Assembly (NCBI GenBank): GCA_963805855.1
Contig: CAWDVW010000007.1
Location: forward strand, 391,457-455,456
Origin: Candidatus Dadabacteria bacterium
GTDB lineage: Bacteria > Desulfobacterota_D > UBA1144 > Nemesobacterales > CSP1-2
Direction: 5' to 3'
Length of the DNA stretch: 64,000 nt
Below are positions 57,377 to 62,089 of this stretch, piece after piece. The notes under the pieces were generated by a model. It did not search any database, was not told the DNA's origin, and saw only the letters and a program-made list of their open reading frames with translations. A program made the position numbers and the translations under genes. How positions within the stretch are numbered: the first letter of the stretch is position 1; the number at the start of each line of letters is the position of its first letter.

Positions 57377-58372
57377 TTGGTTGAGGATATGACAGAGATT
57401 ATAGGAATTGATGCAGGTGGTTCAAAAACTACGGTGATCCACGCATCTGTCGCAGACACCATTAAGACAGAATTCCAATTAATAAGAGAATCCGACTTGA
57501 ATTCCTATAATTATAGACAGGATGGAATTACCGCTCTCAATAGTCTTATTAAAGAAATCCTGGGCACTTTTCAGATCGGGGACATAAAGAGTACCCGTCT
57601 GCTCGGTGGATTTGCCGGTGCCGGAACGGACAAATGTCATACAGATATTCAAAGATCATTCGAGAAACACGGCTTTCGTAGAAACCTGACCACTATTACA
57701 AGCGATGCAGGGCTGCTTTTAATGGCAATAGGCAATACCGGCATAGTCTTAACTGCTGGCACAGGCTCGATATGTATAGGTAGAGGAAGGGTTTCCGAGG
57801 ACGGGAGGGAAATAAATGGCCGCGCGGGCGGCTACGGCTTTCGGACGTACTCAGAACCGGGGGGATATCAATTGGGAATGAGAGCGATTGATGCTGCGCT
57901 AAAGATAGAAGATGGGAGAGGACACGAACCTACCGTTTTATATACCAGAATTAAGGATTATTTTGGTGTTAGCCGTCTTGAAGAGATAATTCCATTGCTA
58001 TATCCTCAGTCAGGTAAAAACAGTAATGTTAACAGGCAGATAGCGGGTGTTTCTAAGGTCGTACTTAAAGCCGCTCACGAAGGCGACAGAACAGCAATTC
58101 ATCTCGTTAAAGAGCTGGTTTATAATTTTGCGGGCCATATCCATGCCGTGTACCGCAAACTGGGACTAGAAAGCTCTCTAGTCGGGCTGCATGGTGGGCT
58201 TTTTGCCGACCCACACGGTGAGGAACTCCTCATAAAACCATTGACACGACACCGGCTCTTGCATAAATATGATTTGAAATTTATCACACTGGGAGTCAAA
58301 ACAGGCGATACCGATCCCCTGATAGAGGCCATGAAGCACGTGGTAGTAGTGAACGAACACTTGAAGACATAA
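57377..58372 (+). CDS. BadF/BadG/BcrA/BcrD-type ATPase (N-acetylglucosamine kinase-like, ASKHA fold)
   Basis: N-terminal IGIDAGGSKT phosphate-1 motif and a second glycine-rich motif TAGTGS. 331 aa. Confidence 0.7.
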   Translation: MVEDMTEIIGIDAGGSKTTVIHASVADTIKTEFQLIRESDLNSYNYRQDGITALNSLIKEILGTFQIGDIKSTRLLGGFAGAGTDKCHTDIQRSFEKHGFRRNLTTITSDAGLLLMAIGNTGIVLTAGTGSICIGRGRVSEDGREINGRAGGYGFRTYSEPGGYQLGMRAIDAALKIEDGRGHEPTVLYTRIKDYFGVSRLEEIIPLLYPQSGKNSNVNRQIAGVSKVVLKAAHEGDRTAIHLVKELVYNFAGHIHAVYRKLGLESSLVGLHGGLFADPHGEELLIKPLTRHRLLHKYDLKFITLGVKTGDTDPLIEAMKHVVVVNEHLKT

Positions 58373-58655
58373 ATCTAGGCTAAAATAGAACTCATCGGAG
58401 CAATCTTTTTATTTGACTCTGGCCTCCCTTTAGCAGCTTTCAAGGGATTAAATCTAAGTCAAATAGGATTGAATTCAGTGCTCAAAAAGAAGATAATTTT
58501 AAGGCAATGCTGACTTTTAAAAGTACATCAGCCGAAAAGAATTCTCAAAATAGCTCCATGTTATATCGAATGTCATCCTATATTCATTCCTTAAGATTAA
58601 TGCTTATTTCGGTGTTCTTTGCATCGAATGCCTATGCCCAGTTCTCCCCTAACCC

Positions 58656-59027
58656 ATGAAAAATGAATTCGATGTATTTACAGAAATTTGCAAAGAAACC
58701 TTCGAATTCCTTAAAAATCAATATGGGTTTTGCGAATTAATGGAGGAGCGGGAATCTTATGTCGTTTATCTTACTTATAAGAACAATACAACTGGTGTAA
58801 GAATTAGTTATGAGCCTATCGAAGAAGGGGTTTTTGTCCTACTAGCTCGCTCGGTAAGTGGTGAGGTTCCCAAAGAGCCTATTTTCATTAAATCAGATAT
58901 TGAATTGAACTCATTCTATCTTGATGATCTGGTTAAATTAAGAAAACCGGAAATATTGGTTGAACGTAAACCGAAGATTGAATCATCAGGAGAAGGGCTG
59001 AGACAATACTTAGTTATAATCAGCTAA
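58656..59027 (+). CDS. Hypothetical protein (123 aa, acidic)
   Basis: ORF only. It lies within the AT-rich low-density segment and has no recognisable motif. Confidence 0.35.
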   Translation: MKNEFDVFTEICKETFEFLKNQYGFCELMEERESYVVYLTYKNNTTGVRISYEPIEEGVFVLLARSVSGEVPKEPIFIKSDIELNSFYLDDLVKLRKPEILVERKPKIESSGEGLRQYLVIIS

Positions 59028-59272
59028 GGAAATGTGCTGGAGATGTGCTTTCAGGGAAATTCGACGTCTTTAGAAAATTAGATCGTGTTGTAAAGGACAG
59101 ACATAGAGAATTAAATCAAGCCTGATTGTCAATCAATCGGTGAACCGTACCCAAGAAAAAGGAGAAAAAGATAAGGCTAGGGATCACCCACCAGCCAGTC
59201 CCTGTCAATAGAAATTAAAGAGGATGCAGCCCTTTATTTAGAGATGATTCATTCATTCACGCCTGACCCCCT

Positions 59273-59662
59273 CTAATTCTCCACCTTGAGTTGTTTATCA
59301 AAAGTTATCAATTTAGCCTCTTCATCCCTCACAAACTTCAGAAGCAGCACATCATTGTAATTAAGCTCTCCATTACTCTCAATAACCCCATCTGCTACCT
59401 CAGCATGAATTTCCTGCATGTTTTCGAGCCAGATAACATTTATGTTTGCCTCAAGCTCTTTCAACTTTCCTAGGGCTTCTTTACAGTCGTATTTCCTTTC
59501 CCTACACCTTCTTGCTATAACCGAGTATATTTCTGAAAGATTGGTACTAAGAACATAAACTCTCTCATTCCCGAGATCTTCTATTATTCCTACCGCATTT
59601 TTGTGATGGGCGTCTTTTTTATCAAGAAGAGCCACTATGATGTTTGTATCTAGAACTATCAC
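59273..59662 (-). CDS. PIN-domain ribonuclease (VapC-like toxin)
   Basis: MIVLDTNIIV (first acidic residue), central E, and YNDVLL / FDKQL acidic residues in PIN spacing. The GTG start overlaps the upstream gene's TGA (GTGA). Confidence 0.8.
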   Translation of the reverse strand: MIVLDTNIIVALLDKKDAHHKNAVGIIEDLGNERVYVLSTNLSEIYSVIARRCRERKYDCKEALGKLKELEANINVIWLENMQEIHAEVADGVIESNGELNYNDVLLLKFVRDEEAKLITFDKQLKVEN

Positions 59663-60018
59663 TTATACAGCCTCTGTTCATCCTCTACAGCATCACCCCC
59701 CATTGCCAAAGACCCTGCAAGCTTTAAAAGGCTTTTCGCAGTCCCTATTTCTCTTTCTTCTACAATTTCAACATCGAGTTTCCTGAGTATCCTCACCGCA
59801 TCCTGAGTCGTGAAATCGAGGAGCGTCACATCATAACCCTTTTCCTTAAAGACCTCATAAAGCAAGTTTTTGACCGGGATTCTTTTCCCGTCGATTAAAG
59901 CATAATAAGATTTCCCCCTTCCCGGTATTCTTTTCTTGGCAACCTTTTCAATATCTTTCTTTGAGAGGTAAGCTTCTTTACCCCTCAGTATAAATTTCTT
60001 TGCCGATCTAACTGTCAT
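59659..60018 (-). CDS. Atypical PIN-associated partner protein (putative antitoxin, 119 aa from the ATG at 60018)
   Basis: A GGAGGT SD lies 7 nt upstream of the ATG at 60018 (MTVRSAKKFIL...); the GTG at 60033 in the ORF track has no SD. GKRIPVKNLLYEV...GYDVTLL is loosely reminiscent of DUF433-type PIN partners. The acidic C-terminal tail is AVEDEQRLYK. Confidence 0.5.
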   Translation of the reverse strand: MTVRSAKKFILRGKEAYLSKKDIEKVAKKRIPGRGKSYYALIDGKRIPVKNLLYEVFKEKGYDVTLLDFTTQDAVRILRKLDVEIVEEREIGTAKSLLKLAGSLAMGGDAVEDEQRLYK

Positions 60019-60765
60019 GCACTTTACCTCCACTTACAGTTATCAATAAGTGTATATTTATCTCACAATTAATCAAGAAGGGAAGTTTACTCGTTATTCG
60101 AGATATTTAGGAGAACACTCAAGACTAATTCTCAATTAACGTTAGTTAATCGGTACCTCTTCCGCTTTCAACGTTACCCCTTCTTGTAATTAAAGGGGAC
60201 GCATGTAGATGCTCAGTAATTATGTCCCTCTTTTCCAATAACGAAGAAATCTTAATTTAACAAATAGAGGAGCTGAACTTTTATCTCTAAAAACCATATA
60301 ATAATTTATTTAATCAAATAATTGTGTGTCTAAGTAGTGTGTTATCTTAAATTTGTGATTTTCATTTTTGAATTAAGTGATCTAAGAAACCTTTTTTGAA
60401 CGAATAATGAATCACTTACTAATAAGTCGCAAAAAGTTACCGAATTAGTGAGCTAGTACAACGCATGTACTTTATTTGGAGATAACTCATTTATTCGCGA
60501 CACCATTCAGGAAGGAACAATAATTCGAGGTCTGTACGGCATTGATTATCCAGCCTTTTAGAACAAGGTCGGGAATTTGGTGGGTGGAAGTCGATTGATG
60601 TTCCCCATTTTTCTCCCCCTACCCTTTTCACATATCTTCTATAATACGGTCGGTTCTTGCGTTTTTTGTTGAAATCAATTAATCTAAGACCTTGAAAAAT
60701 AAGGTCTATATATATATATTAAAACTATTTAATAACCTGCAACATCGAAATCAGAGGTTCTTAAC

Positions 60766-61113
60766 ATGCCGATATATGAATATGAATGTACTAAATGTGG
60801 TGAGATAACCGAAGCACTCCAGGGCTTTAATGACAAGCCGCTTAAAAGATGCAAGTCTTGTAAGGGAAAACTGGAAAGAATAGTATCCCTCTCTTCCTTC
60901 CACTTAAAGGGGCACGGGTGGTATTCAACTGATTATGCAAAGAATGCTGGAATCCCCCCCATGGCCGAAGCACAGAATAATCCGGCCATTTCTGACAGCA
61001 CAAACGGGACCAAACCGAGTGGGGATATGGATAAGAAACCGGCTGTCGAGCCAAAACCCGCGAGCTCATCCAGAAGGGTTATCCAGAAAAACGGCGTACA
61101 AAGGTCTGAATAG
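60766..61113 (+). CDS. FmdB-family zinc-ribbon protein
   Basis: MPIYEYECTKCG....CKSCKG double CxxC at the N-terminus, followed by a disordered tail. Confidence 0.8.
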   Translation: MPIYEYECTKCGEITEALQGFNDKPLKRCKSCKGKLERIVSLSSFHLKGHGWYSTDYAKNAGIPPMAEAQNNPAISDSTNGTKPSGDMDKKPAVEPKPASSSRRVIQKNGVQRSE

Positions 61114-61297
61114 TATCTCTAAGACAACCCTGTCTTCTTAGTCGTTTCAGCAGAGTTCCAACATACAAAGTTCCTTAAATCGAACTTATCCAATTAGTCT
61201 TTATGTGTACGCCTATTCTTGATATATTCTTTCCCGGTATCCTTTTTCTTCGTTTTCGACTTATACTTTAATTCAAGCAAGGGGGAAAAATCGAAAA

Positions 61298-62089
61298 ATG
61301 GATCTTGGAATAAAAAATAAGGTCGCAATAGTAGCAGCATCCAGTAAAGGCCTGGGTAAAGGGGTCGCGCTTGGACTCGCCGAGGAAGGCGTGAATTTGA
61401 CGATCTGCGCACGGGGCACAGAGGCATTAAAAGCAACCGCCGAAGAAATAAGGTCCAAAACCGGCGTAGGTGTTTTACCGATCCAGGCCGACGTCTCGAA
61501 TACCGATGACATTAAGCGGGTTGTTTCCGAGACGTTGCGTCATTACTCAAAGCTTCACATACTCGTAAACAATGCAGGGGGGCCTCCCCTCGGATATTTT
61601 GCCGATTTCTCTCTTGAGGATTGGAAGCAAGCCTTAGGACTTAACCTTTTGAGCACTATAACCTTCATCAAGGAATCAATTCCGCACATGAGAGAACAGA
61701 AATGGGGAAGGATCGTAAACATTACTTCAGTAGCTGTTAAACAGCCAATCGACGGGCTAATCCTATCGAATACTTCAAGGGCGGGGGTCATAGGCCTCAC
61801 CAAAACATTATCCAACGAATATGCTAAGGATAACATCTTATTCAACAATGTTTGCCCCGGCAGGATACTTACCGACAGGATCATCCAGCTTGCCGAAGCC
61901 AGAGCCAAGACTGCCAATATGAGCGTTGAAGAAGTGTTATCCTCCATGGAAAAAGACATCCCGATTGGAAGGATTGGAAAACCGAAAGAATTGGCTGACC
62001 TCGTTGTATTCCTCTCTTCAGAAAGGGCGAGTTACATAACCGGAACAACGATACAGGTAGACGGAGGAGCTGTGAAAGGAGTATATTAG
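61298..62089 (+). CDS. SDR-family oxidoreductase (FabG-like)
   Basis: VAASSKGLGKGVA Rossmann variant, NNAG, catalytic Ser in ITSVA, and IQVDGG C-terminus. The Tyr of YxxxK appears replaced (SRAG), unusual for an SDR. Confidence 0.75.
   Translation: MDLGIKNKVAIVAASSKGLGKGVALGLAEEGVNLTICARGTEALKATAEEIRSKTGVGVLPIQADVSNTDDIKRVVSETLRHYSKLHILVNNAGGPPLGYFADFSLEDWKQALGLNLLSTITFIKESIPHMREQKWGRIVNITSVAVKQPIDGLILSNTSRAGVIGLTKTLSNEYAKDNILFNNVCPGRILTDRIIQLAEARAKTANMSVEEVLSSMEKDIPIGRIGKPKELADLVVFLSSERASYITGTTIQVDGGAVKGVY

Follow-up and report, generated by a model that had tools for sequence, protein, structure and literature searches.

What kind of protein is encoded by a gene that lies upstream of, and overlaps, a PIN-domain gene in a 64,000-nucleotide stretch of contig CAWDVW010000007.1 from a Candidatus Dadabacteria bacterium (assembly GCA_963805855.1, positions 391,457 to 455,456; this whole stretch is referred to below as the window)? 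A first-pass annotation, made from the letters alone, had proposed that the two genes might form a variant VapBC-like toxin-antitoxin module with a non-standard antitoxin, and this proposal was supported by family searches, structure prediction and the conserved pairing of the two genes. Our reading, to which we assign a probability of roughly three in four, is that the locus is an autoregulated, chromosomal VapBC operon (a type II toxin-antitoxin system) in which the antitoxin has a DNA-binding domain of a new kind.

Both open reading frames (ORFs) were confirmed on the minus strand where they had been reported. The vapC-like PIN toxin gene (59273..59662, minus strand, 129 residues) starts with a GTG at 59662 and ends with a stop codon at 59275-59273, and the antitoxin gene (59659..60018, minus strand) encodes 119 residues when read from the ATG at 60018. 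The GTGA overlap was read directly in the sequence and consists of the antitoxin TGA (59661-59659) and the PIN GTG (59662-59660) on the minus strand. A Shine-Dalgarno-like AGAGG for the PIN gene (59671..59675, minus strand) precedes the GTG of that gene by 8 nt, within the 3' end of the antitoxin gene, and the overlap together with this internal AGAGG is, to judge from the letters, a classic translational-coupling layout. The length of the partner had been given as 119-124 residues. Both starts exist, the longer form being read from a GTG at 60033, and the 119-residue form is better supported because its ATG is aligned with the annotated start in 11 of the 11 related loci compared and has a GGAGG Shine-Dalgarno sequence (60027..60031, minus strand) 8 nt upstream, and because the alternative GTG falls within the ribosome-binding site.

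The downstream protein matched the PIN family of Pfam (PF01850, E = 2.8e-16, 60.6 bits with a cut-off of 23.6) and the VapC family of NCBIfam (TIGR00028, E = 4.5e-8, under the strict cut-off of that model), and close homologues are named 'type II toxin-antitoxin system VapC family toxin' by NCBI. Among 24 PIN homologues of 39-87% identity, D5, E44 and D104 were invariant and D122 was nearly invariant, and in a profile alignment these four acids fell on the catalytic positions of AF_1683, an archaeal VapC. The VapC-like acidic quartet that had been recognised by eye was in this way substantiated, and the loss of catalytic residues that had been raised as a possible objection was not observed, the residues being conserved. 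An AlphaFold2 model built on the homologue alignment had a mean predicted local distance difference test score (pLDDT) of 94.9 and could be superposed on VapC20, VapC2 and FitB. When this model was compared with the PDB using Foldseek, the top matches were VapC and other stand-alone PIN-domain structures (E = 2e-5 to 1e-3, template-modelling score (TM) up to 0.78), among them PAE0151, AF1683, Mycobacterium tuberculosis VapC20 (TM 0.78), Rickettsia felis VapC2 and other VapCs; in PHROGs only a PhoH-type PIN was matched, and weakly. Based on sequence and model together we confidently assign the downstream protein as a VapC-type PIN domain, and the toxin of the module is an ordinary one. The subfamily to which it belongs has the signature ARRCRERKYDC, of which ARRCxExxxxC was invariant, as were C53, C60 and H86, in the 24 homologues down to 39% identity, and the RRC part is common to M. 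tuberculosis VapC20 according to the profile alignment. An invariant Cys/Cys/His set of this kind (C53, C60 and H86) is unusual among VapC toxins, and these residues could form a metal site, a disulfide or redox switch or an antitoxin-binding surface, or have a regulatory role.

For the partner, searches of Pfam, NCBIfam and the PDB sequences gave no family, the best E-values being about 0.1 (Pfam and NCBIfam) and 0.028 (PDB), all to unrelated families; the Pfam release that was scanned predates PF28009, and P0053, P0130 and P0033, proteins with PF28009 on record, likewise score nothing there. Profiles of the standard VapB folds (RHH/CopG, AbrB/SpoVT/MazE, Phd/YefM and HTH-Xre) did not match the partner, and none of its 54 relatives matched any antitoxin-family profile. 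The earlier remark that the partner has no obvious RHH, AbrB, Phd or MazE signature therefore held in all three databases and across the relatives. Sequence profiles of the partner family (alignments A2 and A4) returned only noise from the PDB, Foldseek found no significant match in the PDB for the antitoxin model, and a PDB search with the tail only, which returned nothing other than designed repeat proteins, was uninformative. The homologues of the partner fell into 24 clusters at 90% identity, with 59 cluster representatives at E ≤ 1e-3 among 1.8 billion, and a set with one genome per species (185,579 species) contained 6 loci of the family. The partner family is small and rare, and it is confined to little-studied lineages, including thermophilic groups.

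The partner had also been described as loosely reminiscent of the DUF433-type partners of PIN-like domains, and if this were correct it would be a divergent member of the standard DUF433/COG2442 PIN-associated family and the module an already classified VapBC subtype. Pairs of PIN and COG2442 are a recognised VapBC class (PMC3834315), and P0007, which is 81% identical to the partner, is labelled 'uncharacterized protein (DUF433 family)' by the Joint Genome Institute. P0007 is the sole homologue so labelled, and DUF433 (PF04255) was found neither in the partner nor in P0007 at E ≤ 10, nor in any of the 54 relatives. The resemblance to DUF433 was accordingly dropped, and we consider this explanation highly improbable.

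The AlphaFold model of the antitoxin consists of two different parts. Its N-terminal domain (59758..60000, minus strand; residues 12-92 in the 124-residue numbering), in which the motifs IPVK and LDFTTQDAVRILRKLG are conserved, was predicted to be compact, with block-mean pLDDT values of 73-90 and the order strand-strand-helix-strand-strand-helix-helix-helix-strand. This domain is strongly basic (isoelectric point 9.95, net charge +9.5) and the tail is acidic. The C-terminal tail (59662..59757, minus strand; residues 93-124, EIGTAKSLLKLAGSLAMGGDAVEDEQRLYK) was modelled as a short helix at residues 99-110 followed by an acidic end of low confidence, the last 14 residues (111-124) having pLDDT values below 50. 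The same division was seen in the family alignment, which splits cleanly into about 30 members with a tail and about 20 domain-only proteins of 77-85 residues. The consensus of the tail in the former is LLKFAGxLSxGGNAVEDExxLY, and the form found in the window is LLKxAG-x-L-x-x-GGDAVEDExRLY.

The distribution of the tail was compared with that of the PIN gene in 45 related loci, counting tail-bearing homologues with enough downstream sequence. The tail motif was kept in all PIN-linked homologues and was missing from the homologues without a PIN. Each tail-bearing homologue was followed on the same strand by a PIN gene of the same subfamily, mostly with a 4-nt overlap, in all cases except the HR37-type locus and one Aquificaceae locus (L022). 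Among the loci examined, tail-less homologues never adjoined a PIN gene; some stand alone next to a phosphoketolase gene and others precede a gene for an AbiEii toxin. The presence of the tail thus tracks the presence of the PIN in both directions, as expected of a toxin-binding segment, and the tail is presumed to be the part that binds and neutralises the PIN. The metagenome-assembled genomes (MAGs) from which the loci came are labelled Thermodesulfobacteriota/Deltaproteobacteria, Candidatus Dadabacteria, Thermodesulfovibrionales, Aquificota and 'Bacterium HR37', corresponding to four or five phyla. Given that the identities of antitoxin and PIN co-vary over 171 locus pairs (r = 0.93), the two genes travel as a unit. 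One further locus (L045:2435-3107) encodes a 75-residue protein with an unrelated N-terminus (MNAYKAKYSNGTVQLLEQP...) and the same tail (DLLKLSGIVNLGGDAVKDKKALYDR; GGDAVKDKKALY), and its gene overlaps a gene for a 151-residue PIN protein. This protein had no match in Pfam, and its N-terminus, which we take to recall antitoxins of the AF2212/DUF104 type, was not confirmed as such by that search; from the sequence, the locus looks like a natural head-swap.

Given that both proteins have conserved homologues and that the gene pair recurs in unrelated neighbourhoods, the pair is more than a chance arrangement. The neighbourhoods differ wholly: L001 has an integrase and further toxin-antitoxin genes around the pair, L002 has a ParE-rich island, and in L006, L051 and the window the pair stands among housekeeping genes. 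In the window the flanking genes encode LutB/LutC-like proteins, two short-chain dehydrogenases, a BadF-type ATPase, a zinc-ribbon protein, a ComEA-like HhH protein and a penicillin-binding protein; a search of positions 58000-61500 with Rfam at E ≤ 1 and a tRNA scan of the whole window returned nothing. The module is a stand-alone two-gene insert. A 123-residue ORF (58656-59027, plus strand) is convergent to the PIN gene; it was considered as a third component and rejected, since Pfam assigned it to no family and it does not resemble the ORF that precedes the antitoxin gene in L002.

A housekeeping context with no mobile or defence island, together with the failure of PADLOC to match the module, is also what would be seen if the locus were a decayed or non-toxic remnant, with a PIN that is inactive or serves as a housekeeping nuclease and, as its partner, a small unrelated regulator that merely happens to share the operon. 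Broken versions do exist. In three assemblies with the HR37-type locus, drawn from 'Bacterium HR37' and related metagenome contigs, the antitoxin is intact and the PIN is either absent (L019:2141-3840 and L027:2495-4194) or reduced to a stub of 58 residues (L028:983-1524), the latter being truncated after about 45 residues of the PIN, so that an orphan antitoxin stands beside a disrupted toxin, possibly as a result of an insertion. In an Aquificaceae MAG (L022:2896-3977) a tail-bearing antitoxin has no PIN downstream, and the next gene begins with MKILTVDIGNTN and resembles a type III pantothenate kinase; the orphan antitoxin here is of a second kind. Set against these cases, both ORFs in the window are of full length with catalytic residues, start codons and Shine-Dalgarno signals intact, relatives with identities as low as about 40% for the antitoxin (range about 40-86%) and about 33% for the PIN (range about 33-81%) retain both genes and the 4-nt overlap, and the tail and the PIN are kept or missing together as described above. 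We regard a remnant as very unlikely.

How the tail of a VapBC-type antitoxin might reach the toxin can be judged from the solved R. felis VapBC2 complex, in which the C-terminal end of the antitoxin occupies the groove separating the two active sites, with Arg74 and Tyr76 in contact with the catalytic Glu43 and Asp99 (PMC3326315). The first-pass annotation had suggested that the acidic end of the partner could occlude the PIN active site, and by analogy with VapBC2 this picture is probably imprecise. The terminal R121-L-Y123 would more likely plug the active site than would the acidic DAVEDE run, and the latter may instead lie opposite the RRCRERK helix, which is basic and invariant in the PIN subfamily. 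Among the antitoxin relatives Y123 is nearly invariant and position 121 varies.

Family PF28009.1 ('SCO5918') is on record for relatives of the N-terminal domain of the antitoxin at 31-60% identity, including stand-alone forms of 83 residues and the tail-bearing, PIN-linked proteins P0130, P0033 and P0132; where the strength of these records is marked it is 'weak' or 'faint', and none is on record for the partner or its closest relatives. SCO5918 itself is a Streptomyces gene without an assigned function, and its cold-shock operon also encodes a CspA homologue and a DEAD-box RNA helicase. The domain occurs twice in P0052 and at least three times in P0068, a repetitive protein of 1187 residues. 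It also heads an McrB-like AAA protein (P0074, L050:90-1361) that has a DEINR motif and is followed by a gene matching McrB_lid. The N-terminus of McrB-family proteins is the usual place of their DNA-recognition domain, and the occurrence of the domain in such proteins suggests that it may be a general nucleic-acid-recognition module in restriction-type systems. A tail-less protein of 83 residues (P0055) is encoded upstream of an AbiEii nucleotidyltransferase toxin gene at three loci (L011:2275-3607, L012:189-1521 and L013:932-2264), with an ORF of 96-122 residues between the two in two of these loci and genes for IS605/IS200-type transposases nearby; here the domain may be the DNA-binding part of a split AbiE-type antitoxin.

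In the window the domain is presumed, and probably rightly so, to be the part of the antitoxin that binds DNA at an operator, and a candidate operator is found directly upstream of the gene. The palindrome CACTT-N12-AAGTG (60031..60052, minus strand; CACTTATTGATAACTGTAAGTG) has its left arm inside a -10-like hexamer and its right arm abutting the ribosome-binding site. On the minus strand the region reads TTGATT-16 nt-TACACTTATTGATAACTGTAAGTGGAGG-8 nt-ATG, from which a putative promoter (60049..60076, minus strand) was proposed with a -35 element TTGATT at 60076-60071, a 16-nt spacer and the -10-like TACACT at 60054-60049; the pattern of TTGAYW, a 16- or 17-nt spacer and TACACT is conserved in most of the aligned loci. 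Near-perfect palindromes in promoters are described as a hallmark of toxin-antitoxin operators (PMC3326315). The palindrome has one match in the 64-kb window compared with 0.04 expected, and 13 related loci each contain a single match in the same place just upstream of the antitoxin start. It is present with 1-2 mismatches in L002, L006 and L029, and with an N11 spacer in L051 (Thermodesulfovibrionales). In 11 aligned upstream regions the arms were conserved and the spacer was variable. Since the left arm is located in the -10-like TACACT, a repressor bound there would block RNA polymerase. It is a tentative suggestion, for which we would give somewhat less than even odds, that the N-terminal domain represents a DNA-binding fold with sequence specificity that has so far escaped recognition, and that the conserved operators directly show its half-site, CACTT. 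No intrinsic terminator was found. Between the operon and the divergent zinc-ribbon gene at 60766 there is a non-coding stretch of 730 bp (60034-60765) that is AT-rich (31-35% GC) and far exceeds what a promoter and operator need, and in which no Rfam family or long ORF was found.

A different explanation of the same data is that the genes are a VapBC-like pair in which the N-terminal domain binds RNA or only dimerises, the palindrome being promoter or 5'-untranslated sequence or a weak RNA hairpin. The only named relative of the domain, SCO5918, is found in the cold-shock operon mentioned above, DNA-binding activity has been shown for no member of the N-domain family, and the arms abut the Shine-Dalgarno sequence and overlap the -10-like hexamer, so that gene expression alone could conserve both. 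Against this, the right arm appears to be kept independently of the ribosome-binding site, given that L038 and L039 retain TAAGTG in the absence of the following GGAGG, and in 13 loci each arm is the exact reverse complement of the other despite drift in the spacer. In addition, the domain is found in the N-terminal position of the McrB-like protein. The hairpin form in particular was judged unlikely: the stem would be only 5-7 bp, L002 and L006 show no compensating change for their mismatches, and if TACACT is the -10 element, transcription starts in the spacer and the left arm is outside the mRNA. Taken as a whole, RNA binding or mere dimerisation by the N-terminal domain is an unlikely explanation, and one that we nevertheless take seriously.

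A number of observations weigh against a DNA-binding antitoxin in a VapBC-type operon as we propose it. The consensus promoter scan did not call the proposed promoter, which is explained by TACACT fitting the consensus at only 4 of 6 positions. The half-sites are 17 bp apart, centre to centre, which is not a whole number of helical turns. The palindrome is absent from the divergent clade members L017, L024 and L040-L044, as would be expected if operators co-diverge with their binding domains. The cold-shock context of SCO5918 could equally suggest RNA binding, and the head domain of the restriction endonuclease ScoMcrA is described as being of 'unknown function' (PMC6224610). Finally, the orphan antitoxins in L019, L022, L027 and L028 indicate that the partner may have a life of its own.

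If the locus is nevertheless a VapBC-type operon with a DNA-binding antitoxin, as we favour, it could work as follows. The PIN toxin would be a Mg-dependent endoribonuclease that arrests growth by cutting structured RNA, its nearest solved relatives including VapC20, a cutter of the sarcin-ricin loop of 23S RNA. In the 119-residue antitoxin the basic N-terminal domain of about 80 residues would replace the usual RHH, AbrB, Phd or HTH domain, and the tail, unstructured when alone, would fold onto the groove of the PIN dimer so as to obstruct the active site. Together with the toxin, the antitoxin, which is most likely dimeric, would bind CACTT-N12-AAGTG, and binding over the -10 element and beside the ribosome-binding site would repress the operon. 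Loss of a labile antitoxin would then free the nuclease.

VapBC is the most abundant type of toxin-antitoxin system and the modularity of antitoxins is already known, and one further antitoxin DNA-binding domain leaves the general picture unchanged. The chief value of the locus is that the PF28009/SCO5918-like family of unknown function, a domain also present in restriction-type proteins, is tied to a testable activity, namely binding to CACTT-N12-AAGTG. The locus also shows a division of the antitoxin into a presumed DNA-binding head that can be swapped and a tail specific to the toxin, for which the tail-less members and the protein with a different head and the same tail are natural controls. 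If the domain were indeed a new DNA-binding fold, this would provide a first functional handle on a domain found in the stand-alone 83-residue proteins, in McrB-like restriction GTPases and in the SCO5918 operon, and possibly in the head of ScoMcrA, and it would define a new class of VapB with a portable PIN-neutralising tail.

Compared with known systems, the antitoxin is probably a new architectural variant, in which a PF28009-like, basic and probably DNA-binding domain is fused to a portable, presumably PIN-neutralising tail. Like the VapBC modules R. felis VapBC2 (PDB 3zvk), Neisseria gonorrhoeae FitAB and M. tuberculosis VapBC20, the locus has a PIN toxin with four acids, an overlapping upstream antitoxin gene, an antitoxin with a presumed N-terminal DNA-binding module and a C-terminal tail that is predicted to be unstructured and presumed to bind the toxin, and a palindrome in the promoter. 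It differs from these in that the N-terminal domain of the antitoxin matches no known VapB fold (AbrB/SpoVT, RHH, Phd/YefM, HTH or DUF433) and in that the PIN belongs to a narrow subfamily with the invariant signature RRCxExxxxC...H. No member of the PF28009 'SCO5918' family, in turn, is known to act as an antitoxin, and the antitoxin of the window has its C-terminal tail in addition to the domain. ScoMcrA (PDB 5zmm), a type IV restriction endonuclease that carries a small head domain at its N-terminus, was matched by Foldseek at E ≥ 2, which is not significant and leaves unspecified which of its four domains was aligned, and there was no match to it in the sequence profiles. In the modular antitoxins of the NetFlax/Panacea kind (PMC10440598) the shared element is a promiscuous globular domain, whereas here it is a short toxin-specific tail for which only one alternative architecture was seen. 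The two are alike in swapping domains: here the GGDAVEDExxLY tail is joined to different N-terminal domains in L045 and in the partner family, and one N-terminal domain is used with and without the tail, as well as beside a toxin of the AbiEii type.

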